A stretch of 10,394 bases of DNA from Candidatus Aenigmatarchaeota archaeon (lineage in GTDB: Archaea > Aenigmatarchaeota > Aenigmatarchaeia > CG10238-14 > SCSR01): NCBI GenBank assembly GCA_039000165.1, contig JAWBTW010000022.1, forward strand, positions 1-10,394. Reading direction: 5' to 3'. This document shows, piece after piece, positions 1-10,394 of the stretch (its first letter is position 1; every line of letters begins with the position of its first letter). The notes under the pieces were generated by a model, which was not told where the DNA came from, ran no database searches, and was given only the letters and a program-made list of their open reading frames with translations. A program made the position numbers and the translations under genes.

Positions 1-555
1 GTCATTAAACCCATAAACTAAAAACTTATAAATTGCTTTCTCGTTTGGCATTAGTGGAATAGATTTATCTTGTAAGATTGCTTTTATCTCAGAAGCAAAG
101 ACGAATTTTTTTCCATTAGCATAATAGTAAAGCGGTTTTATGCCAAATCTATCCCTAACTAAAATCAATGTCTTCCTTCTTTTATCCCAAATAGCAAAGG
201 CAAACATTCCATTTAATTTTTCTAGGCAGTTTATACCCCATTCTTCATAAGCATGAACTATAACTTCTGTATCACTCTTTGTATAAAAATTGTGACCAAG
301 TTTAATCAACTCTTCTCTTAATTCAAGAAAGTTATAAATCTCTCCGTTATGTACTACCCACACATTCTTTTTTTCATTGTAAATGGGTTGTTTACCAGAC
401 TTGATATCTATGATAGCAAGTCTTCTGCTCCCTAAAGCAACATTTTTATCAAAAAGTATTCCACTATCATCAGGACCACGATGCTTTAAAGTTTTAAGCA
501 TCTTTCTAAGCAAAGGTTTGTTTTCAGTCCCAAAATAACCAGCTATACCACACAT
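1..555 (-). CDS. asnB: Asparagine synthase (glutamine-hydrolysing)-family amidotransferase, N-terminal Ntn glutaminase domain; partial, runs off the left edge
   Basis: Missing from the ORF track; translated by hand from ATG at 555: MCGIAGYFG...LKHRGPDDSG...GSRRLAIID...GKQPIYNE...HNGEIYNF...SDTEVI...LNGMFAFAIWD...RDRFGIKPLYY...FASEIKAIL. The N-terminal Cys nucleophile and the class II GATase motifs are present, and the frame is open to position 1. It starts 6 nt after the epimerase stop. In a glycan locus it is probably a sugar amidotransferase. Confidence 0.95.
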   Translation of the reverse strand, partial: MCGIAGYFGTENKPLLRKMLKTLKHRGPDDSGILFDKNVALGSRRLAIIDIKSGKQPIYNEKKNVWVVHNGEIYNFLELREELIKLGHNFYTKSDTEVIVHAYEEWGINCLEKLNGMFAFAIWDKRRKTLILVRDRFGIKPLYYYANGKKFVFASEIKAILQDKSIPLMPNEKAIYKFLVYGFND

Positions 556-561
556 AAAAAG

Positions 562-1683
562 TTAGACCCCTAATTTTTTCTCTAAAATATCAACTATTCT
601 TTTGCTTGCCTTCCCGTCGCCTAAAGGATTTTTGGATTTTTTAACACCTTTATAAAAAGCACCTTTTCTTTTCACATCTTCTAAATAATAAAGAATTTTT
701 TCGGGATTAAACCCTGTTAAAACAGTAGCTCCAGCCTTAACAGTTTCAACCCATTCTGTTACATTTCTCATTAATATACAAGGAATTTTAAGTATGCACG
801 CTTCTTCTTGCAATCCACCACTGTCTGTCAATACTGCTTCAGCATTTTTCACTATGTTCAACCATTCCATGTAGGGAATGGGATCTGATAGATGAACATG
901 ACTCATTTCTTTCAGAGAAGACAATAGATGAAGTCTTTCTAGTTTTCTTTTTGTGTTTAAATTAAGAGGAAAAACAACATTGAATGGACACTTCTCTATT
1001 GTTTTTACAAGTAATTGCATTTTCTTTTTGTTGTTTATATTTTCGAATCTGTGAAGACTTATAGCAACATAATTTTTATATTTAACTTTGATTTTGAATT
1101 TTTTGAGAATATATTCAACCGTTTCCACCATCGGATCCCCAACATAATACATCTCTCCATGAACACCCTCTCTTTTTAAGTTTTTAACTGCGGTTGGAGT
1201 TGGACAAAAGTGAATATTCGTAAACCTATCAGCAATAACTCTATTAATCTCTTCCGGAATAGGCTCAAAAAAATTATGGGAACGCATTCCAGACTCTCTG
1301 TGGGCGAGTAATATTCCCCTTAAAGACAATCTTGCAGCTAGTGCGGTTAAAGGTACGAAAATAGTATCACCTTGGTAAATAACAATTTTTGGTTTTTCTT
1401 TTCTAAAAATCTGCAATAATTTAGGAAATTTTGTAGAGACCCAATAAGAAAAAACTTGAATTGACCCGAAAAAACCTTTTCTAGACCAAACTTCTCTTAA
1501 GCTTTCTCCTAAATTTATGTCAGGTTCTGGTAAATCAAGTTTTTTCATCCAATCTATTATTGTTTGTTGTCCGTGCTGCCCTGTATTTAAAATTTTAAAT
1601 GGTAACCTTCTTTTTTGGCATTCCCTAATTATAGTAGAAAATTTTATTGCTTCGGATCTTGTACCTATTATAAAGATAATCAT
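562..1683 (-). CDS. wecB: UDP-N-acetylglucosamine 2-epimerase family protein (non-hydrolysing, WecB/WbpI-like), about 373 aa
   Basis: Motifs GTRSEAIK, NTGQH, QGDT, ESGMRS, PEEINR, LHRFEN, TDSGGLQEEA, RNVTEW and NPLGDGKAS. The start is moved from 1776 to ATG 1683 (MIIFIIGTR), which matches the family N-terminus and removes the overlap with the divergent gene. Confidence 0.93.
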   Translation of the reverse strand: MIIFIIGTRSEAIKFSTIIRECQKRRLPFKILNTGQHGQQTIIDWMKKLDLPEPDINLGESLREVWSRKGFFGSIQVFSYWVSTKFPKLLQIFRKEKPKIVIYQGDTIFVPLTALAARLSLRGILLAHRESGMRSHNFFEPIPEEINRVIADRFTNIHFCPTPTAVKNLKREGVHGEMYYVGDPMVETVEYILKKFKIKVKYKNYVAISLHRFENINNKKKMQLLVKTIEKCPFNVVFPLNLNTKRKLERLHLLSSLKEMSHVHLSDPIPYMEWLNIVKNAEAVLTDSGGLQEEACILKIPCILMRNVTEWVETVKAGATVLTGFNPEKILYYLEDVKRKGAFYKGVKKSKNPLGDGKASKRIVDILEKKLGV

Positions 1684-1714: not shown

Positions 1715-2830
1715 ATGCAAAAGATTAGAGTTTTTTTACTTTCTGGAAATTTGCCATTGTACATGGAAATGCTCAAGTTTCCACCAAAGCATGTAAAATA
1801 TTTAGGAACACCTTCAAAAGGAGCAAGAAGTTATTATTCAAAAATTAATGAAATAAGAAGGAAAACAGTCTGGTGTATTACTCAAATTTTTAAGATACCT
1901 CGAATGGTTTTTGTTCTAACAAGTGCAGATATTATACATTCAAACAGGGGAATTTGTGTTTTAAACAGGAAGCCCTGGATTATTGATGTTGATCATCCTT
2001 CATCTTTTTTGAGTTTTTCTCCTATTTGGAATGAAGAAAAATATAGAAAAATTCCTGAAAAACTTCTTTCTTCAAAGTTTTGTAAAAAGATAATGCCTTG
2101 GTCTTGGGCTTGTTTTAAATCTATGATTAGCTCTTTCTCAAAAAACGAAAGAATAAAAGAAAAAATGGAAGTTTTATATCCAGCAACCTTTTTATATGAA
2201 GGAAAAAAGAAAGCCGAAAAAGAATTTATTACTTTGCTTTATGTTTCAAGTTTATTTAAAGAAAAAGGAGGAATGGAAGTTTTAAAAGCTTTTGAAATTT
2301 TAAGAAGAAAATTTGATGTTAAGCTAATCTTTAAGTGTGATGTACCAGATGAAATAAAGGAAAAATTCAAATTTCCAGAGATAGAGTTCTACCAATATAA
2401 AAAAGAAATTCTGCCAAGAGAAAAATTGTTATCTCAATTCTTTGCAAGAGCTGATATTTTTGTTTATCCAACCTATTTTGATATTTTTGGTTTATGTTTG
2501 CTAGATGCTTTGGCCGTAGGTCTACCAATAGTTGCCACAGATGTTTTTGCGGTGCCAGAAATTGTTGAAGATAATAAAAACGGTTTTTTAATTCACTCCC
2601 CTATAAGATGGCATGATGAAACTTATCTATGGAACCCTGTTGGCGGTTCAAAAAAAGATAAAGAATTTATTGTGAAGCAGTTAGTAGAAAAGCTTTCTTT
2701 GTTGATAGAAGATTCTTCTTTAAGAAGAAGAATGGGAAGATATAGTAGGAGGTTAGTGGAAAGAGGAAGATTTTCGATAAAAGAGAGAAACGAAAAATTA
2801 AGAAAAATATACGAAGAAGCGATAAGATAG
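1715..2830 (+). CDS. Glycosyltransferase family 4 (GT-B fold, RfaB-like), about 371 aa
   Basis: C-terminal GT4 signature LLYVS..FKEKGG..VLKAF and ADIFVYPTYFDIFGLCLLDALAVGLPIVATDVFAVPEIVED.KNGFLI, ending LRRRMG...FS. The start is moved from 1517 to ATG 1715 because the upstream part is antisense to the epimerase gene. Confidence 0.92.
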   Translation: MQKIRVFLLSGNLPLYMEMLKFPPKHVKYLGTPSKGARSYYSKINEIRRKTVWCITQIFKIPRMVFVLTSADIIHSNRGICVLNRKPWIIDVDHPSSFLSFSPIWNEEKYRKIPEKLLSSKFCKKIMPWSWACFKSMISSFSKNERIKEKMEVLYPATFLYEGKKKAEKEFITLLYVSSLFKEKGGMEVLKAFEILRRKFDVKLIFKCDVPDEIKEKFKFPEIEFYQYKKEILPREKLLSQFFARADIFVYPTYFDIFGLCLLDALAVGLPIVATDVFAVPEIVEDNKNGFLIHSPIRWHDETYLWNPVGGSKKDKEFIVKQLVEKLSLLIEDSSLRRRMGRYSRRLVERGRFSIKERNEKLRKIYEEAIR

Positions 2831-4264
2831 TTAAATTTTAAGGACTCTTCTTCCTAAATTTTTCATCCAGTTTATTATTTCATTAATAAATAAAACCGAT
2901 AATTTTCCACTTACAAAACAATCTGGGTGTAAACTTACAAATTTATTATAAGAAAAAAACTTCCCCATTTTAAGGTTGTTGATAATGTTCTTTTTCAAAT
3001 CCTTCACATTCTTATAATTTACACCACTTTCTAAACCAAGGAAAATAGCAGACTTTAAATCTTTAATTTTGTGAGCATCATTACCACCCAAACTGTAGAA
3101 GAATTTATTCTTTCTTATCATTTTTTTAAGCCAAATCAAGTTGTTTACAGGAGGGACAGTTCCATGGTATTTTTTGTTCCATACTTCAACGATACTTAAA
3201 CTCGGTGGTTCATAAAATTCAGGAGAAACATGTGCGAATACAAATAGTATTTTATTCCTTTTACAATAACTTATAACTTTTTTAACAGATCTTGAAAAGT
3301 AATACTTTTTTGGATCAATTAAAAGAATATGACTTTCCTTACAAGAAATTTCTAATCCCGGAATTAAAACCAAATTCCTGCTACTGAATTTTTCACATTC
3401 TTTTTTGTATTCTTCCCAAGATCTTTTATTCATGTCTTCAGCATGTTCAGTTAAGAAAACAAATTTTATGTCATTTTTTAAACAAAAATTTTTCAAATTC
3501 TCTAAAGAAAGCTTTCCATCGTGAGAGTAGTCAGAATGTATATGAAAAATTCCCTTAATACTTGGTTTCAACTCATTTCTTCTATTGGAAATGCTATTAA
3601 CTTCTTTCAAGTAGCCTAGAAAGCTTATAATTTTCCTAGAGGTAAGTATGTTAGGGTTTTTAAATAAAAAATTATCTTGAATTGGTATGGCAGGATAAAC
3701 TGCTTTACTATCATCCACAAAACCTATGTCAGAAGTTCTTATGAACTTGTAGCCATACTTTGAACAATTTTTTATAACATTCTGATTATATTTACCTCCG
3801 GGTAAAGAGATAGAGACGATTTTAGTATGCAGAATTGATTCCAATTTATTTTTAGATTCTTGCAATTCTTTAATTAGTTCCTCTTCTTTTAACATTGTAA
3901 GATCTTTGTGAGAGGCTGTGTGAGAACCTACTTCCATCCCATAATCACGTAGCTCTTTAATTTGAGAAACGGTAAGATAATTTTTTTGCCCAAAAGTATT
4001 TGTGATAATAAAAAAAGTGCCATTTACACCATATTTTTTCATTATTTGAAATGCACCATATTGTGATGAGTCGCCATCATCAAAGGTTAAACAAACGACA
4101 TTCTTTTTCTTTGTTTTATTTAACTCTTTTAACCTTACGAAGACGAAGTTTTTCTTTTTGAAAAAATTTATTATCCTTTCGAAACAGTTTAAACTCAAAG
4201 AATACCTGTCTTTAATGTATTTCTTTTTTTCATAAAACCTATGAAATACTAGGACAATCTTCAA
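2831..4264 (-). CDS. Two-domain protein: N-terminal CE4/NodB polysaccharide deacetylase fused to a C-terminal PHP metallo-phosphoesterase domain
   Basis: CE4 motifs: VLVFHRF, LTFDDG (TFDDG at 4087-4073), GTFFIIT, EVGSHTASH (HTASH at 3922-3908) and SLPGG. PHP motifs: HIHSDYSHDG (HIH at 3544-3536), LTEH, PGLEIS, HILL, FAH, EVWN and GGNDAH (GNDAH at 3085-3071). The start is placed at TTG 4264, which overlaps the upstream TGA as TTGA and has GGGGTG about 10 nt upstream. ATG 4282 is the alternative start. Confidence 0.85.
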   Translation of the reverse strand: MKIVLVFHRFYEKKKYIKDRYSLSLNCFERIINFFKKKNFVFVRLKELNKTKKKNVVCLTFDDGDSSQYGAFQIMKKYGVNGTFFIITNTFGQKNYLTVSQIKELRDYGMEVGSHTASHKDLTMLKEEELIKELQESKNKLESILHTKIVSISLPGGKYNQNVIKNCSKYGYKFIRTSDIGFVDDSKAVYPAIPIQDNFLFKNPNILTSRKIISFLGYLKEVNSISNRRNELKPSIKGIFHIHSDYSHDGKLSLENLKNFCLKNDIKFVFLTEHAEDMNKRSWEEYKKECEKFSSRNLVLIPGLEISCKESHILLIDPKKYYFSRSVKKVISYCKRNKILFVFAHVSPEFYEPPSLSIVEVWNKKYHGTVPPVNNLIWLKKMIRKNKFFYSLGGNDAHKIKDLKSAIFLGLESGVNYKNVKDLKKNIINNLKMGKFFSYNKFVSLHPDCFVSGKLSVLFINEIINWMKNLGRRVLKI

Positions 4265-5397
4265 GGTCTTATAACACCCCATAATTTATATAAAAATTCT
4301 GCAAAAAACGGCAACGGATCTTTCCAATCAAATACATAAGGTTTGCACTTAAGTAGTAAGAAGAGGTTTTGAAGTGCTTCGAAAAAGTTTGGATAGTATA
4401 AATTCCATCCTTTAGGTTTTCCTCTGAGTACTCTCAAAAGGTATATCAACACACCCAATAAATGACCAGAATAGACTTTTTTCCATTTTCTTACAGCTAT
4501 GAACTTCTTTCCAACTGCTAAACAATAAAGCTGATAAGGAAAATCAACACCCGCATGAATTGCTAATGGCAAAGAACCCCAAAATCTTCCGTTAATTTCT
4601 ATAAGTTTGAATTTACCATCTTTCTCATCTTTCTTAAACTCAACCATTATTACTCCATTCCATTTCAACCTTTTAATAATTTTTTCAGAATATTTCTTCA
4701 TTTTAGGATAAACTCTTGAAGAGACACAGATAGCGCTACCGCTTCCTTTAGGGTCCTGTTCTACAATTCTTTTATGAGCAAAACATTGCAATATTTTCCC
4801 ATTTTTACATAACGCAAAAAACCCGTAAGTGTCGCCGACGATAACTTCTTGAACAAATGGGAATGGAGATTTTTTATGATATCGAAGATATTCTTCTGTA
4901 AAATTTTCTTTACTAAAAACGTAATGGGGGCGCAAATGATACTTATAATAACTTGGTCTTATTATTACAGGATATCTTATTTTTTCCTTTAATTCTTCCA
5001 GTTCTTCTAACTTCTTTATTGTCCAAGTCTTTGGTATAGGAACTTTAATTTTTTTCATAAGATTTATTGTAGTGATTTTATTGGCAACTGTTTCAAGAGA
5101 TTTAGTAGGGGGTAAAACTTTAGGTAAATTTTTAATTTTAGAAAGAATAATCGAATCTTCCTCTCCTGCTGGGATTATTAAATCATATTCATTCTTTACA
5201 ATTCTCATAAGTTTATTTAGCCAAAATCTTTTACTATCCGGTAATATGTATCTTTTTTTGCAATATTTAGAAAAAAAGCATAGCGCAAGTGGATGCTTAC
5301 TAGCAACATCCACATTTATATTTTTTTTCCCAAGACTGCGAACTATGGCTAAGGTTTTCCACTGTTCTCCACCAAGAACTAAAACTCTGTTTTTCAT
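4261..5397 (-). CDS. ATP-grasp carboxylate-amine ligase of the polysaccharide-locus type, about 378 aa
   Basis: N-terminal LAIVRSLGKK...FFSKYC; ATP-grasp elements ANK, IPKT, YPVIIRP, FVQEVIVG, WNGVIMVEFK.D..DG.FKLIEINGRFWGSLPLAI.AGVDFP; C-terminal DPLPF. The codon at 5400 is TTG, so the adjacent ATG at 5397 is taken as the start. Confidence 0.88.
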   Translation of the reverse strand: MKNRVLVLGGEQWKTLAIVRSLGKKNINVDVASKHPLALCFFSKYCKKRYILPDSKRFWLNKLMRIVKNEYDLIIPAGEEDSIILSKIKNLPKVLPPTKSLETVANKITTINLMKKIKVPIPKTWTIKKLEELEELKEKIRYPVIIRPSYYKYHLRPHYVFSKENFTEEYLRYHKKSPFPFVQEVIVGDTYGFFALCKNGKILQCFAHKRIVEQDPKGSGSAICVSSRVYPKMKKYSEKIIKRLKWNGVIMVEFKKDEKDGKFKLIEINGRFWGSLPLAIHAGVDFPYQLYCLAVGKKFIAVRKWKKVYSGHLLGVLIYLLRVLRGKPKGWNLYYPNFFEALQNLFLLLKCKPYVFDWKDPLPFFAEFLYKLWGVIRP

Positions 5398-5498
5398 CAA
5401 TAAGTATTTATTTTAATTTAATTTTTAATTTAACAGATGTAATGCGGATTTTTAAAGAATAAATGGCTTGGTCTGTTGGAATTTTAGTTGGCCTTAAA

Positions 5499-6428
5499 TT
5501 AATCTTTAATAAGTTCTAGTAAAATTGCTTTTTGAATGTGTAATCTATTTTCTGCTTGGTCGAAAATTATGGAATTCTTTGATTCAATAGTATAATCATC
5601 TATTTCCAAACCTCTATGCGCAGGTAGAGGATGCATTACTAATACGTTTGGGTTAAGTTCCAAAAGCTTTTTATTAACTTGATAAGGAGCAAATGTCTTT
5701 ATTCTTCTTTCTTTTTCTTTTTTGAACTTTGGGTCTAAAAACAATTCCATGTCAATCCATGTGTCTGTATAGATTATGTCAGCATCTTTTATGGCCTTTC
5801 TAGGGTCTTTCTCTTCAAAGTATAAACCTGTTTTCTTTGCTTCTTTTATTATTTCTTCATCAAAACTTGGAGGATGTCTTTCAGGAGAACATAGAACAAA
5901 ATTCATCCCTACCTTTGTACAACCTACTGTAAGCGAATTGCTTATGTTATTTGCTATTCCCATGTAAACTAATTTTAAACCTTCCAACTTTCCTTTCTTC
6001 TCTTTTATAGTAAGTAAGTCCCCTAATATTTGGCAAGGATGATATTTCTCACAACAACCATTAATTACCGGTACTTCTGCTGCATCAGCTAGTAGTTTTA
6101 AGTCCGCATGTTTCAACATCCTTGCCATAATTGCATCTGAATATCTAGCTATACATCTTGCCTCATCTCTAATATCTGCTATAGGGAATTGAGTAGTTCT
6201 CCAATCCAAGTAAATAGCATGTCCACCCATTTGTGTCATAGCAACTTCAAAAGATACCCTAGTTCTGGTAGAAGTTTTCTGAAATATCATTGCTAGAGTC
6301 TTTCCTTCTAAAGATTTTGAAAATTTCTTTGGATTTCTTTTAATTTCTATTGCCTTATCAATAAGATATTTTATTTCTTCTTTTGTGTAATCTTTCAAAG
6401 TAAGCAAATCTCTTCCTTTTAAATTCAT
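5499..6428 (-). CDS. argF: Ornithine carbamoyltransferase-like transcarbamylase (ATCase/OTCase superfamily) with atypical substrate-binding motifs, about 309 aa
   Basis: Carbamoyl-phosphate motifs FQKTSTRTRVSFE, AR, HPCQ and QAENRLH are intact, and the overall layout is OTCase-like. It has DTWIDME instead of DxxxSMG and HPLP instead of HCLP. Start is ATG 6428, 4 nt after the stop of the NodU-like gene; the ORF-track start at 6446 is a TTG inside that gene. The family call is firm, but ornithine specificity is not. Confidence 0.8.
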   Translation of the reverse strand: MNLKGRDLLTLKDYTKEEIKYLIDKAIEIKRNPKKFSKSLEGKTLAMIFQKTSTRTRVSFEVAMTQMGGHAIYLDWRTTQFPIADIRDEARCIARYSDAIMARMLKHADLKLLADAAEVPVINGCCEKYHPCQILGDLLTIKEKKGKLEGLKLVYMGIANNISNSLTVGCTKVGMNFVLCSPERHPPSFDEEIIKEAKKTGLYFEEKDPRKAIKDADIIYTDTWIDMELFLDPKFKKEKERRIKTFAPYQVNKKLLELNPNVLVMHPLPAHRGLEIDDYTIESKNSIIFDQAENRLHIQKAILLELIKD

Positions 6429-6432
6429 TTTC

Positions 6433-8151
6433 TCACTTTTTTTCAATCAACCAATTTTCCATAGCAAGATATTTCAATCCTGAATTTTTAAGAACATATA
6501 ACGCATCTTCCGGCGAACATACTATCGGATAACCGTGTAAGTTAAAAGAAGTGTTCAGGATTCCACCCATTCCCGTACTTTCTTCGAAAATCTTAATGAT
6601 TTTGTAATATTTTTCATTCGTTTCTTTATTCAAAACTTGCGGTCTAATTGTGTAGTCGTAAGGATGCATTGCAGCTACCAAATCTTTTTTTGCTCTTTCT
6701 TTGGAATTAAAAGCTAATATCATGTAAGGGGCAGGAATTTTTTTAGGGTTGATTAGGTATTCTTCTTCAAACTCCTTAATTATTGTTGGAGCAAAAGGCA
6801 TCCAAAAATCCCTTTGCTTTATCATTTCATTTATTATTTTTACTACACCATAATCCGAGGCGTTCGCCAAAATTGACCTGTTACCCAAAGCTCTAGCGCC
6901 CCATTCCATTCTTCCTGAAAATCTGGCAACTACTTGATTGTTAACGAGAAGTTCAGCAATTTTTTCCTCGATGTTTTCAAAAAATTTATATTTTATACCC
7001 TTTTCTTTCCTAAGAATTTTTTCTATATACTCGTTAGAATAGTTCGGGCCTAGGTATAAATCACCCAAAGGTTGAATGTCAACTTTTCTCCCTTCATCTT
7101 TGCACAATTGTTCATAACCATAATAAGCAGAGCCTATTGCTAAGCTTTCATCTCCACAGCTTGGGAAGACGAAAAGTTTTCTTACTTCTGGCATGTTCAT
7201 GATTTTTAAGTTAAGTTTAACGTTCATAAATACACCACCGGCTAAAGCAACATCATGTATACCAGTTTTCTCTATAGCTCTTCTTATCCATTCTACAACT
7301 AACTCTTCAGTAAGTTTTTGTATTGCTCCAGCAATCCAATCGAATCTATGAAGGTACAAATTTTCCCTAACATACTTTTTGAAATTCGGCGTTTTAACGG
7401 GTGAATAAAATTGAAGGGAATTTTCTTTTAAAGTTATAACTTTCTTCAAAATTTTATAGCTTCTTTCTACTCCTTCAGGAGACGCATAAGGAGCTAAACC
7501 CATAACTTTGTACTCATGTTCTAGTGGTTTCATTCCTAAGAAGCGTGTTATTTCAAGATAAAGTATTCCCAAAGAATGTAAGTAAGATGTTTCAGAAATT
7601 TTTTTAATTTCACCATTTTCTACTATGTTGACAGTTCCGCATAGTCCATCTCCACCACCATCCAAAGTAAAAACTAAAAAGTTATCTTTAAAGCCGGAAC
7701 CATAAAAAGCAGTGTAAGCATGGCATAAGTGGTGATCTACAAAAACAATCTTGTTTTCATCAATACCTAAAAGTTTAGAGTATGTTTTTTTTCTTTTTTT
7801 AGTACCGTAGTAAATAGGAACCAATTTGTTGTATAATTTAAAATAAAATTTTTCCGGAAGTATTAGCATACCTTTTTTTAAAATTCTTAATAAATGATGA
7901 AAAGTGCTTTTTGTTTTGTTGATTTCAACTTCTGTAGGCAGAGCAAGAATTCTATTAGATAAAACTATTAAATCCAAATCCTCAGGTTTGATTTTACAAA
8001 AATTTAAAACATAATTTATGGAATTGAGAGGAATTCCTGTATAATTTTTTATTCTTTTAAACCTTTCTTCACTTACACATGCTTCTATTTTTCCATCTTT
8101 CAAAAGGCAGGCAGTTGAATTGTGGCTATCATGAATTCCAAGTACGTACAT
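6433..8151 (-). CDS. NodU/CmcH/TobZ-family carbamoyltransferase, 572 aa
   Basis: Kae1-like N-domain motifs GIHDSHNSTA..EERFKRIK, DHHLCHA, LDGGGD, EYKVMGLAPY, LAGGVFMNVKLN and GDESLAIG. YrdC-like C-domain motifs EWGARALGNRSI, IKQRDFWMPFAP, RPQ and LNTSFNLHGYPIV. Confidence 0.95.
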   Translation of the reverse strand: MYVLGIHDSHNSTACLLKDGKIEACVSEERFKRIKNYTGIPLNSINYVLNFCKIKPEDLDLIVLSNRILALPTEVEINKTKSTFHHLLRILKKGMLILPEKFYFKLYNKLVPIYYGTKKRKKTYSKLLGIDENKIVFVDHHLCHAYTAFYGSGFKDNFLVFTLDGGGDGLCGTVNIVENGEIKKISETSYLHSLGILYLEITRFLGMKPLEHEYKVMGLAPYASPEGVERSYKILKKVITLKENSLQFYSPVKTPNFKKYVRENLYLHRFDWIAGAIQKLTEELVVEWIRRAIEKTGIHDVALAGGVFMNVKLNLKIMNMPEVRKLFVFPSCGDESLAIGSAYYGYEQLCKDEGRKVDIQPLGDLYLGPNYSNEYIEKILRKEKGIKYKFFENIEEKIAELLVNNQVVARFSGRMEWGARALGNRSILANASDYGVVKIINEMIKQRDFWMPFAPTIIKEFEEEYLINPKKIPAPYMILAFNSKERAKKDLVAAMHPYDYTIRPQVLNKETNEKYYKIIKIFEESTGMGGILNTSFNLHGYPIVCSPEDALYVLKNSGLKYLAMENWLIEKK

Positions 8152-8208
8152 TTGCTTCAGCTTTAAATTATTTAAATTTCTTATTTTTTTAAAACTTAGT
8201 TAATACTT
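8152..8208. promoter_or_regulatory. 57-bp divergent promoter region between the carbamoyltransferase and the flippase
   Basis: Minus-strand TTTAAATA at 8176-8169 lies 18-25 nt upstream of ATG 8151 and follows a purine-rich AAGAAA (BRE-like). Plus-strand TTTTTTTAAAA at 8184-8194 lies upstream of ATG 8209. Confidence 0.5.
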
Positions 8209-9720
8209 ATGAGCCTAACTAGAAAAATGTTTTCAAATTCTTTTTATCTTTTTTTAGATGTGATAGTGGTTAATCTTTTGGGTTTAATCTTTTGGTTTTT
8301 CAACGCAAGATTTTTATCCCCAGAAGAAGTGGGTATTGTTTCTACTTCAATAAACCTTGCCCTTTTTTTATCTTCATTAAGTCTTTTAGGTTTCCAAGGA
8401 GTTCTGCCAAAACTAATCCCAGAATACTTAGAAAAAAGGCAGTATAATAAAATCGTTAGTTTATCGAGACTTACTCTAAAAGTAGTGTTGTTGTCAAACA
8501 CAGCAATCGTTTTAACCGTTTTGCTCTTTTTACCTCTATTTCAATCTCTTCTAAACTTACCAGCTAAGGCTTTAATTTTCTCCTCTTTTCTACTATTCTC
8601 TTTTACATTTTCTACTTTCTTTGGATGTATTATGTGGGGGTTTCAAAATATGCGTGCTTTTTTCTCAACAGATTTTGTAGGCGTGGTAACCAAACTTCTT
8701 TTAACTATAATCTTATTGTTCTTTGGTTTTGGCTATATAAGTCCCTTAATAGGTGTTTTACTAGGCTACATTCTAATAGACTTGAAAAGATTCAGAAAAT
8801 CTTGGTTTTTCCCTCCTAGTAAGGAAAAAATTAACAACAGAGAAATATTTTTTGATTATGCGTTACCCTATTTCATTACTCTTGTGTCGGGCTTAGTGTT
8901 TTCAAACTTTCAAATACTTCTTTTAGCTTCTTTACAAGGCCAATATGCTACAGGTGGCTATTCGATAGCTTTTTTAATAGCTTCTCTCATATCAATAATT
9001 CCAGGTGTTTTGTCCCAAGCTTTATTTCCTATAATCTCACAACTCTCTGTGGGTAAAAAAATCAAAAAACAATCTTATTTAATAAGATTAGTCTTAAGGT
9101 ATGCTCTATTTATTGTGCTTCCTCTAGCAGCAGTTTTAATATTCTTCTCAAAACCTTTACTTCTTTTGCTTAGAAGCGAATATATAGAAATAACGGATAT
9201 TCTTTCAATATTAACAACAGCTTCCATTTTATTTGGTTTAGGTCAACTATTCTCTTCCAATCTTTACGCAATAGGTAAAACCAAATTAAATAGAAATATT
9301 TGGATTGTTTCTGCAATAACATTCTTACTAATTTCTCCAGTTTTAGTTAGCTTATATTCAGCCTTCGGACTTGCAATTTCTTTTACACTTGCATCCTTAA
9401 TTTTCTTAATTTTGAACTATTACTTTATCAAGAAAACATTAAAATTGAAAATTGATTGGACAAACTTGTTTAAACTGACAATACCATTATTCTTACTTTT
9501 GTTCTTCTTTTATATTGCAGATGCGGTTGAAGCAAACCTGCTAATAAAAATTATTTTTGCTTTTTGTGGTTTGTTTGTTTATTTAATACTTTTGGTTCCC
9601 TTGAGATTTTATAAAAAAGAAGATTTGAAAATACTTCATATAATCGTAAAAAAGCTCCCTATGATGAAAAAACAATTTTTGATTTTGCTAAAATGGTTCT
9701 CAAAATATGTTCAACAATAA
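8209..9720 (+). CDS. Oligosaccharide flippase, MOP superfamily (Wzx/RfbX/AglR-like), 503 aa
   Basis: Highly hydrophobic with roughly 12-14 TM-like segments by eye. Family-typical pieces: N-terminal FWFFNARFLSPEEVGIV, LPKLIPEY, ATGGYSIA, QALFPIISQL, LYAIGKTK, and C-terminal FYKKEDL. Confidence 0.9.
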   Translation: MSLTRKMFSNSFYLFLDVIVVNLLGLIFWFFNARFLSPEEVGIVSTSINLALFLSSLSLLGFQGVLPKLIPEYLEKRQYNKIVSLSRLTLKVVLLSNTAIVLTVLLFLPLFQSLLNLPAKALIFSSFLLFSFTFSTFFGCIMWGFQNMRAFFSTDFVGVVTKLLLTIILLFFGFGYISPLIGVLLGYILIDLKRFRKSWFFPPSKEKINNREIFFDYALPYFITLVSGLVFSNFQILLLASLQGQYATGGYSIAFLIASLISIIPGVLSQALFPIISQLSVGKKIKKQSYLIRLVLRYALFIVLPLAAVLIFFSKPLLLLLRSEYIEITDILSILTTASILFGLGQLFSSNLYAIGKTKLNRNIWIVSAITFLLISPVLVSLYSAFGLAISFTLASLIFLILNYYFIKKTLKLKIDWTNLFKLTIPLFLLLFFFYIADAVEANLLIKIIFAFCGLFVYLILLVPLRFYKKEDLKILHIIVKKLPMMKKQFLILLKWFSKYVQQ

Positions 9721-9782: not shown

Positions 9783-10394
9783 TCAAAATGGTCTAAACAA
9801 AACGAAAGCTAAAAAAGCAAATAGTAATTCTATTGTTACAATGGCAAAAACAACTCTTTTTTCACTCTTAACAAATTTTAGAAAAACATGAGTTAAAGAG
9901 CCTATTCTTTCAGGAGCTTTTAAGCTTCCGTTTTTTTGCGGTATGCCAAAGCATTCACTCTTAAACTTATTCTTTGCTTTTATCAAAAACTCAATAAAAT
10001 AAGGAATAAAAAGGAAAACAGCTATTTTTTCCATGTTTCCCAAGATTGCTACGCAAGCGATTAAAGCTCCTGTAGCATAAGTAAGAGTGTTGCCAGGGAA
10101 TACTTTTGCAGGATATTTGTTAAAAATCAAGAAAGCGATTAAGCTAAAAACTGCTGAAAAAGCAATTGTGGCAACCCACAAAAAATTGGAAAGCCAGGCA
10201 AAAACTCCTAAGGTGCTAAGAATTATTAAACCCATATAAGCTTCTAATCCATTAAGGCCTGCAAGCATGCTAAAGCCATTAGCAGCACCTACAATTCCTA
10301 GAGGAACTATTAAAAGAGGATATAGAATTCTAAAATCCACATCACCAAAAAAAGGAATGCTCATAACCGAATTTCCAGCGTTAATTACCATTAG
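9783..10394 (-). CDS. aglH: Polyprenyl(dolichyl)-phosphate GlcNAc-1-phosphate transferase, AglH/DPAGT1/MraY superfamily; partial, 5' end beyond the right edge
   Basis: Motifs GAANGFSMLAGLNGLE, FLIFNKYPAKVFPGNTLTY..GA and FIPYFIEF, in a hydrophobic protein. The LAGxNGLE form is the archaeal/eukaryotic type rather than bacterial DGxDGL. The frame is open to the window edge (10394-10392 = CTA). Confidence 0.85.
   Translation of the reverse strand, partial: LMVINAGNSVMSIPFFGDVDFRILYPLLIVPLGIVGAANGFSMLAGLNGLEAYMGLIILSTLGVFAWLSNFLWVATIAFSAVFSLIAFLIFNKYPAKVFPGNTLTYATGALIACVAILGNMEKIAVFLFIPYFIEFLIKAKNKFKSECFGIPQKNGSLKAPERIGSLTHVFLKFVKSEKRVVFAIVTIELLFAFLAFVLFRPF

Follow-up and report, generated by a model that had tools for sequence, protein, structure and literature searches.

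The window analysed here, a 10,394-nucleotide (nt) stretch of DNA that makes up an entire contig (C22) of the Candidatus Aenigmatarchaeota assembly GCA_039000165.1 (genome G000; 783 kb in 25 contigs, 91.6% complete), carries a carbamoyltransferase (CT) gene of the NodU/CmcH/TobZ type followed on the same strand by a gene for an ornithine transcarbamylase (OTC)-type enzyme, both within a glycan locus. Genes were called from the listing of open reading frames (ORFs) together with Pfam and NCBIfam profile scans (Table 1). Read directly, the minus strand across the CT/OTC junction is AAG TGA gaaa ATG AAT, which bears out the co-orientation and the 4-nt gap given in a preliminary description of this DNA, and a Shine-Dalgarno (SD)-like GTGA overlaps the CT stop codon just ahead of the OTC ATG; we infer that translation of the two genes is coupled. 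The pair diverges from a flippase gene, as that description had also stated; the 57-bp AT-rich spacer between the two ATGs is presumed to be a promoter region shared by the CT and the flippase, and neither the ORFs nor the profile scans revealed a further arginine or pyrimidine gene in the window. The CT-OTC pairing recurs in related archaea, and we tentatively favour the reading that it supplies carbamoyl phosphate (CP) for the carbamoylation of a glycan.

Among the 371 genomes of the class, CT was present in 91, OTC in 129 and both in 39, and in five of these 39 the two genes were at most one gene apart. The preliminary description had proposed a survey of gene neighbourhoods, and the pairing was located in three genera: CT and OTC are adjacent in G000 and G094 (genus g1) and in G055 (g13), and they lie one gene apart in G231 and G233 (g108, a member of another family). 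In G094, where the CT occupies 3333-5075 and the OTC starts at 5078, the spacer is at most 8 nt; the flanking five-domain cassette is reordered around the pair, its order being shuffled within genus g1 with CT and OTC still adjacent. The CT contig of another g1 genome, G098, ends inside the CT, and the position held by the OTC in G094 is not assembled; an STT3/AglB oligosaccharyltransferase is encoded on the same contig, which links the cassette with N-glycosylation. Within genus g1, CT and OTC were either present together (G000 and G094) or absent together, with G095 (90% complete) having carB and pyrB and neither CT nor OTC.

In a quick IQ-TREE tree, the paired OTCs of the three lineages fell into three clades. 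The enzyme of genus g1 belongs to a subfamily in which a DME sequence replaces the canonical SMG of the ornithine-binding loop (hereafter the DME loop) and carries HPLP; that of genus g108 has a DME loop with a longer insertion; and that of G055 is fully canonical, with SMG, HCMP and GDGNN. The paired CTs are 31-35% identical between lineages, and closer CTs (46% identity in G024 and 41% in G082) have no OTC beside them. Under a rough model assuming 800 genes per genome, ~0.2 co-localised genomes would be expected by chance among the 39, and the Poisson probability of observing at least three is ~0.001. We conclude that the adjacency of CT and OTC is more than chance and that the pairing is rare but recurrent.

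It is unlikely, in our view, that the adjacency is incidental, the OTC being a leftover from the loss of ArcE and ArcC that sits in or beside variable glycan islands with no functional link to the CT. Such an origin would accommodate the 34 of 39 genomes that keep both genes apart, the OTC of genus g108, which is convergent to the glycan operon rather than inside it, and the OTC subfamily at large, in which no CT was found near DME-loop genes at 80 genome loci (±10 kb; L007-L086) or at 80 metagenome loci (±8 kb; L155-L234, with L155 and L156 included). On these last counts we rejected the idea that the pairing is conserved across the whole subfamily. An incidental origin would not, however, account for the three independent lineages where ~0.2 genomes are expected, for the 4-nt spacing, which implies co-translation, or for the joint gain and loss of CT and OTC within genus g1, and an OTC gene without a partner would be expected to degenerate in genomes this small (0.6-0.8 Mb).

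The CT consists of an N-terminal Kae1-like domain (Carbam_trans_N) and a C-terminal YrdC-like domain (Carbam_trans_C), both of which exceeded their profile cut-offs (PF02543, 153.6 vs 24 bits; PF16861, 193.7 vs 27 bits). Its best solved relatives are NovN (9s2t, E 8.9e-58), GdmN, 7xb6 and TobZ, with E values from 1e-51 to 1e-58. It scored 91.9 bits on the NodU equivalog NF041651, far under the cut-off of 1000, and is therefore not NodU proper. Enzymes of the TobZ/NodU family, of which HypF is a homologue, use CP and ATP via a carbamoyl-adenylate, and the window CT is predicted to act as an ATP- and CP-dependent sugar O-carbamoyltransferase. Four CT homologues with 41-42% identity (P0121-P0124, one labelled Nanoarchaeia) are fused to GNAT, CTP_transf_3 (of the CMP-sugar synthetase type) and YhcH domains, which hints that related CTs act on sugars of the nonulosonic-acid type. 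A genome of another genus (G088; 73% complete, 5% contamination) has an ATP-grasp gene and a CT fragment at a contig end (C118:3018-5147); the fragment is 96% identical to residues 1-69 of the window CT and reflects either a recent transfer of the cassette or mis-binning.

The window OTC exceeded the curated cut-off of the OTC equivalog TIGR00658 (EC 2.1.3.3; 341.1 vs 280.85 bits) and that of NF001986 (342.6 vs 306 bits), and it scored below the cut-offs of NF011379 (PRK14804; 322.8 vs 373 bits), of putrescine carbamoyltransferase (TIGR04384; 267 vs 500 bits) and of aspartate carbamoyltransferase (TIGR00670; 158.2 vs 236.95 bits). Its best solved match is the OTC of P. furiosus (1a1s, 287.8 bits). 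Alignment to 1a1s showed that the CP-binding motifs STRTR, HPCQ and FQKTSTRT(R), the last with the equivalent of K53, are retained. The DxxxSMG ornithine loop is replaced by DTWIDME with a 6-residue insertion (S to D and G to E, with D and M kept), the OTC signature HCLP by HPLP, and GDGNN by GIANN; the equivalents of D231 and M236 and the NN pair are also kept. The review PMC4581275 gives DxxxSMG (D231, S235 and M236), N167 and K53 as the ornithine-binding elements of OTCs. Since the window OTC lacks the SMG and HCLP motifs, it could act on another ureido or amine substrate.

The altered loop is common to all 120 of the 120 best database homologues of the window OTC. The subfamily pattern is DTW(V/I)(D/N)ME.F.DPKF in place of DxxxSMG and H(D/P/C)(M/L)P in place of HCLP, its members score best on NF011379/PRK14804, and it forms a clade apart from canonical OTCs with 100% SH-aLRT support in the quick tree. 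One genome scan located DME-loop genes in at least 586 genomic stretches, all annotated as ornithine carbamoyltransferase even though the subfamily lacks the textbook ornithine-binding motifs; most are from Bathyarchaeia, and others are from Micrarchaeota, Poribacteria, Latescibacterota, Anaerolineae and Clostridia. In Micrarchaeota the gene adjoins carA (four loci) or argG-argH (one locus), and Micrarchaeota and Poribacteria genomes with argG have no other OTC-type gene. In the closest metagenomic relatives (L155:6292-8170 and L156:2739-5698, 74-75% identity), a DME-loop OTC stands in tandem with a canonical OTC, and in L156 a carbamate kinase gene lies directly upstream, with a class-III aminotransferase nearby. 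Two transcarbamylases in one catabolic-looking cluster suggest different substrates or roles. The evidence on the function of the subfamily is divided, with arginine-gene neighbours pointing one way and the tandem with canonical OTC the other. In Bathyarchaeia, the gene was seen in a conserved housekeeping block (Spt5, D-aminoacyl-tRNA deacylase, FtsY and prefoldin), and at three loci (L014, L015 and L033) its neighbours are genes for AdoMet decarboxylase, a branched-chain polyamine synthase or both; argG was not seen in one genome of this kind (G001).

We regard it as rather improbable that the DME-loop transcarbamylase N-carbamoylates some other amine bound for the glycan, which the preliminary description had offered as its second possibility, or frees CP from another ureido compound. 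One candidate acceptor would be a small amine or amino acid that is later ligated by the adjacent ATP-grasp enzyme. A changed substrate is consistent with the replacement of DxxxSMG (an ornithine-binding element according to PMC4581275), HCLP and GDGNN alike, with the tandems in L155 and L156, which argue against redundancy, and with the company of deacetylase, ATP-grasp and PHP enzymes in which the g1 pair travels. On the other hand, the OTC equivalog cut-off is passed with D231, M236, K53 and the NN pair conserved, the subfamily provides the sole OTC-type gene of argG-bearing Micrarchaeota and Poribacteria and adjoins carA or argG-argH in the former, the G055 pair has a fully canonical OTC and no ATP-grasp gene, and in 6 of the 10 genomes with the ATP-grasp cassette it is found with no CT.

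The preliminary description reasoned from a reduced genome lacking CarAB. This premise proved false for G000, in which carA (476.7 bits), carB (1519.6 bits), pyrB and pyrI lie in a row on contig C1, the true pyrB scoring 372.1 bits on TIGR00670. The search of the source genome that it had proposed gave the following for the other genes: profile searches of G000 returned no match for argG, only a 59.6-bit match for argH (cut-off 279.5), no match for arginine deiminase (ADI; arcA) or its superfamily PF02274, and only 20.3 bits for carbamate kinase (arcC), and tblastn of G000 with a candidate ArcE-like arginine synthetase from the arcE-arcC-arcB cluster of a relative (G065) returned no match. The other CP enzymes in G000 are only CarAB, PyrB and the CT. 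Because argG, argH, ADI, carbamate kinase and an ArcE-like enzyme were not found, the window OTC is an orphan. It has neither the co-transcribed carbamate kinase nor the ADI or ArcE elsewhere in the genome that would identify a catabolic OTC (ArcB), although linkage to arcC does occur in its nearest relative, L156; nor does the genome have the argG and argH of an arginine pathway, and we therefore rejected a housekeeping argF for G000. The preliminary description would have settled for chance adjacency of a housekeeping gene had the pairing occurred nowhere else and had the genome held a complete arginine pathway, and neither is the case.

The candidate from G065 is a 434-aa P-loop protein (L238:3984-5288) with weak cobW/MeaB/LpxK matches, encoded directly upstream of arcC-arcB, and it fits the published description of ArcE. 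Its homologues occur in 155 of the 371 class genomes, which speaks for OTCs as CP producers in this class; none of the 155 has the CT-OTC pairing. The window ATP-grasp gene was rejected as an ArcE, which is a P-loop protein resembling LpxK (PMC11032458), and also as a CarB, its likeness to the CPSase-L ATP-binding domain being weak (46 bits).

Across the 118 genomes of the order, CT was found in 34, OTC in 40, argG in 4, carB in 20 and arcC in 21. All 21 arcC genes are in OTC-positive genomes, mostly adjoining the OTC, and for two of the three paired OTC clades, linkage to arcC is seen in the nearest relatives (L156 for g1; G051 and G054 for G055). In G055 no carB, arcC, argG, pyrB or ArcE-like gene was found, leaving OTC and CT as the only CP enzymes found; with no other source detected, an OTC running forward would have no CP there. 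A CP source of any kind was present in 23 of 34 CT-positive genomes of the order vs 28 of the 84 others (Fisher p 0.0009, a value not corrected for phylogeny). The review PMC6022934 regards co-transcription with the enzyme that consumes CP as characteristic of catabolic transcarbamylases, and it puts the half-life of CP at ~5 min at 37 °C, so that a local supply dedicated to one consumer is plausible. In Thermococcus kodakarensis, which has no CP synthetase (CPS), ArcB has been shown genetically to be required for the CP that enters pyrimidines and [NiFe]-hydrogenase maturation, as reported by Michimori et al. 2026 (PMC13260591).

The comparative evidence and this precedent (PMC13260591) favour the proposal of the preliminary description that the OTC runs in reverse to feed the CT. 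Its rationale, a want of CarAB, fails for G000 itself, yet it holds for the other paired lineages, neither carB nor arcC being found in G055 or in G231, G232 and G233, the last three of which also yielded no ArcE. In a genome without carB (G033; L152:91-2862), a canonical OTC lies between pyrC-like and pyrF genes, and in G013 (L151:7687-14635) the pyrB-pyrD-pyrK-pyrC genes have a DME-loop OTC 1.5 kb upstream; these two loci hint that pyrimidine synthesis in these archaea also draws on OTC-derived CP.

A forward-running OTC that combines CarAB-derived CP with imported ornithine into citrulline, with this citrulline then linked to the glycan without any part played by the CT (for example as an amide through the ATP-grasp ligase), is improbable: CarAB is present in G000 and G094, an ATP-grasp ligase gene lies 98 nt downstream, and uronic acids decorated with amino acids are known in archaeal N-glycans, but the scheme is unworkable in G055 and g108, which have no CP source besides OTC and no ATP-grasp gene in the locus, it leaves the CT unexplained as a conserved partner, and no source of ornithine turned up (argG and argH absent; arginase not searched for).

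Taken together, these data lead us to favour, with reserve, the reading in which CT and OTC form a CP-supply module for glycan carbamoylation, with the OTC phosphorolysing imported citrulline to feed the CT. This reading builds on what was observed: which genes these are, how the operon is arranged, that the pairing recurs, and that no other enzyme of arginine or citrulline metabolism was found. Citrulline or a closely related ureido compound would enter the cell from outside, and the OTC-type enzyme would operate in the phosphorolytic ('catabolic') direction, converting citrulline and phosphate to ornithine and CP. The co-translated TobZ/NodU-type CT would then use CP and ATP to O-carbamoylate a sugar of a lipid-linked glycan, which the surrounding locus probably builds with its GT4-family transferases, WecB, deacetylase/PHP fusion, ATP-grasp enzyme and Wzx flippase.

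Several points weigh against this supply module. The OTC equilibrium strongly favours citrulline synthesis, and the reverse reaction therefore needs a strong pull. Because carA-carB stand next to pyrB-pyrI in G000 and G094, CP can be made there without the OTC, and because no citrulline-making enzyme was found in G000, citrulline import would be required. A CT can evidently exist without a recognised CP source, since 11 of the 34 CT-positive genomes of the order have no OTC, carB or arcC, including one that is 95% complete (G046). The window OTC may have another substrate, given that two ornithine-binding motifs are replaced. Most genomes with both genes keep them apart (34 of 39), and the DME-loop loci surveyed above had no CT nearby (0 of 80 and 0 of 80). 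A fused CT-OTC protein was not found among 32 longer CT homologues, which is weak evidence in that the search scored only those candidates that shared the largest number of words. Finally, all genomes are incomplete metagenome-assembled genomes (MAGs) of 73-92% completeness, and the gene absences are accordingly provisional.

A wider proposition, which we put forward as possible but still doubtful, is that the pair constitutes a portable, citrulline-driven two-enzyme cassette for glycan carbamoylation that came together on at least three separate occasions in DPANN archaea, in which an OTC without any other arginine-pathway partner would be kept only to feed the CT, and through which a symbiont would carbamoylate its surface glycan at the expense of citrulline from its host or community; the DME-loop subfamily may differ from canonical OTCs in substrate or direction.

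The cassette of genes that flanks the pair in genus g1 (Table 1) can be separated from it. ATP-grasp homologues adjoin the CT in G094, G098 and G088, and the deacetylase and PHP domains, which are fused in the window, are encoded by separate genes flanking the ATP-grasp gene in G094 and G098 (compare L148:480-1391 and L148:2576-3325). Of the ten genomes that have the cassette, six have it without a CT (G048, G029, G011, G043, G041 and G027), and the loci of G055 and g108 do not contain it, which led us to reject the ATP-grasp, PHP and deacetylase genes as obligatory parts of a CT-OTC module. The contig has a GC content of 0.309 vs 0.334 for the whole genome and a tetranucleotide correlation of 0.974, like other small contigs and below the large ones; such values are typical of a glycan island. 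Its placement in G000 rests on binning.

Table 1. Genes and intergenic features of the 10,394-nt window
Feature	Position	Strand	Remarks
AsnB-like amidotransferase, N-terminal glutamine-amidotransferase part	1..555	-	PF13537 178.2 bits; truncated by contig end
WecB-type UDP-GlcNAc 2-epimerase	562..1683	-	TIGR00236 258.8 bits vs cut-off 210.15; start inferred at ORF Met32
Group-1 (GT4) glycosyltransferase	1715..2830	+	PF00534 78.4 bits; start inferred at internal Met, ORF opens at 1517
Polysaccharide deacetylase-PHP phosphoesterase fusion	2831..4282	-	PF01522 99 bits, PF02811 32.2 bits
ATP-grasp ligase (PRK06849/PRK12767-like)	4261..5400	-	98 nt downstream of OTC
OTC-type transcarbamylase, 309 aa, ATG start MNLKG	5499..6428	-	PF02729 155.4, PF00185 158.1, TIGR00658 341.1 bits
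CT-OTC spacer, 4 nt	6429..6432	-	CT TGA 6435-6433, OTC ATG at 6428; read from the sequence
NodU/CmcH/TobZ-type carbamoyltransferase (CT), 572 aa	6433..8151	-	PF02543 153.6, PF16861 193.7 bits
AT-rich divergent intergenic region, 57 bp	8152..8208	.	Between CT ATG at 8151 and Wzx ATG at 8209; presumed shared promoter region
Wzx/MOP-type polysaccharide flippase	8209..9720	+	PF01943 84.2 bits
Glycosyl transferase family 4 (MraY/AglH-like phospho-sugar transferase)	9783..10394	-	PF00953 77.7 bits; truncated by contig end

If the supply reading is correct, it would give a testable role to many orphan OTC genes of ultra-small archaea (OTC in 40 vs argG in 4 of the 118 genomes of the order), extend CP supply by reverse OTC beyond pyrimidines and hydrogenase maturation to the chemistry of the cell surface, and predict that DPANN archaea carry a carbamoylated surface polysaccharide or N-glycan made from a host- or community-derived metabolite. 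That an OTC running in reverse can supply CP to something other than a kinase is already known (published in 2026), and neither the CT family nor the occurrence of CTs in glycan loci is unusual. The novelty lies in an OTC-CT operon that is hard-wired and has been assembled repeatedly in the glycan loci of ultra-small archaea whose genomes have lost all other arginine enzymes; our literature searches, whose coverage excluded subscription-only papers, found no published account of a CT-OTC glycan module.

Compared with known systems, the window OTC shares identical CP-binding motifs with the anabolic OTC of P. furiosus (1a1s/1pvv), whereas the SMG loop, HCLP and GDGNN of the latter are replaced in the window enzyme, which sits in a separate clade. 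TobZ, NovN, GdmN, CmcH and NodU have the same two-domain architecture as the window CT; they tailor antibiotics or Nod factors with CP from CPS, and our literature searches found none described with a dedicated OTC. The catabolic arcB-arcC modules of the arginine deiminase and arginine synthetase pathways are common in this order and resemble the CT-OTC pair in that an OTC is co-transcribed with a CP consumer, but there the consumer is carbamate kinase, which yields ATP, while here it would be a sugar carbamoyltransferase, which would yield a glycan decoration. The nearest precedent is the ArcE/ArcB route of Thermococcus kodakarensis (PMC13260591; ArcE in PMC11032458), in which reverse OTC is a physiological CP source for non-kinase consumers, including a HypF-dependent process. 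In Thermococcus, citrulline is derived from arginine via ArcE, the genes are dispersed and CPS is lacking; in the genome studied here, by contrast, no ArcE, ADI or arcC was found, CarAB is present, and the OTC is joined to a glycan CT.

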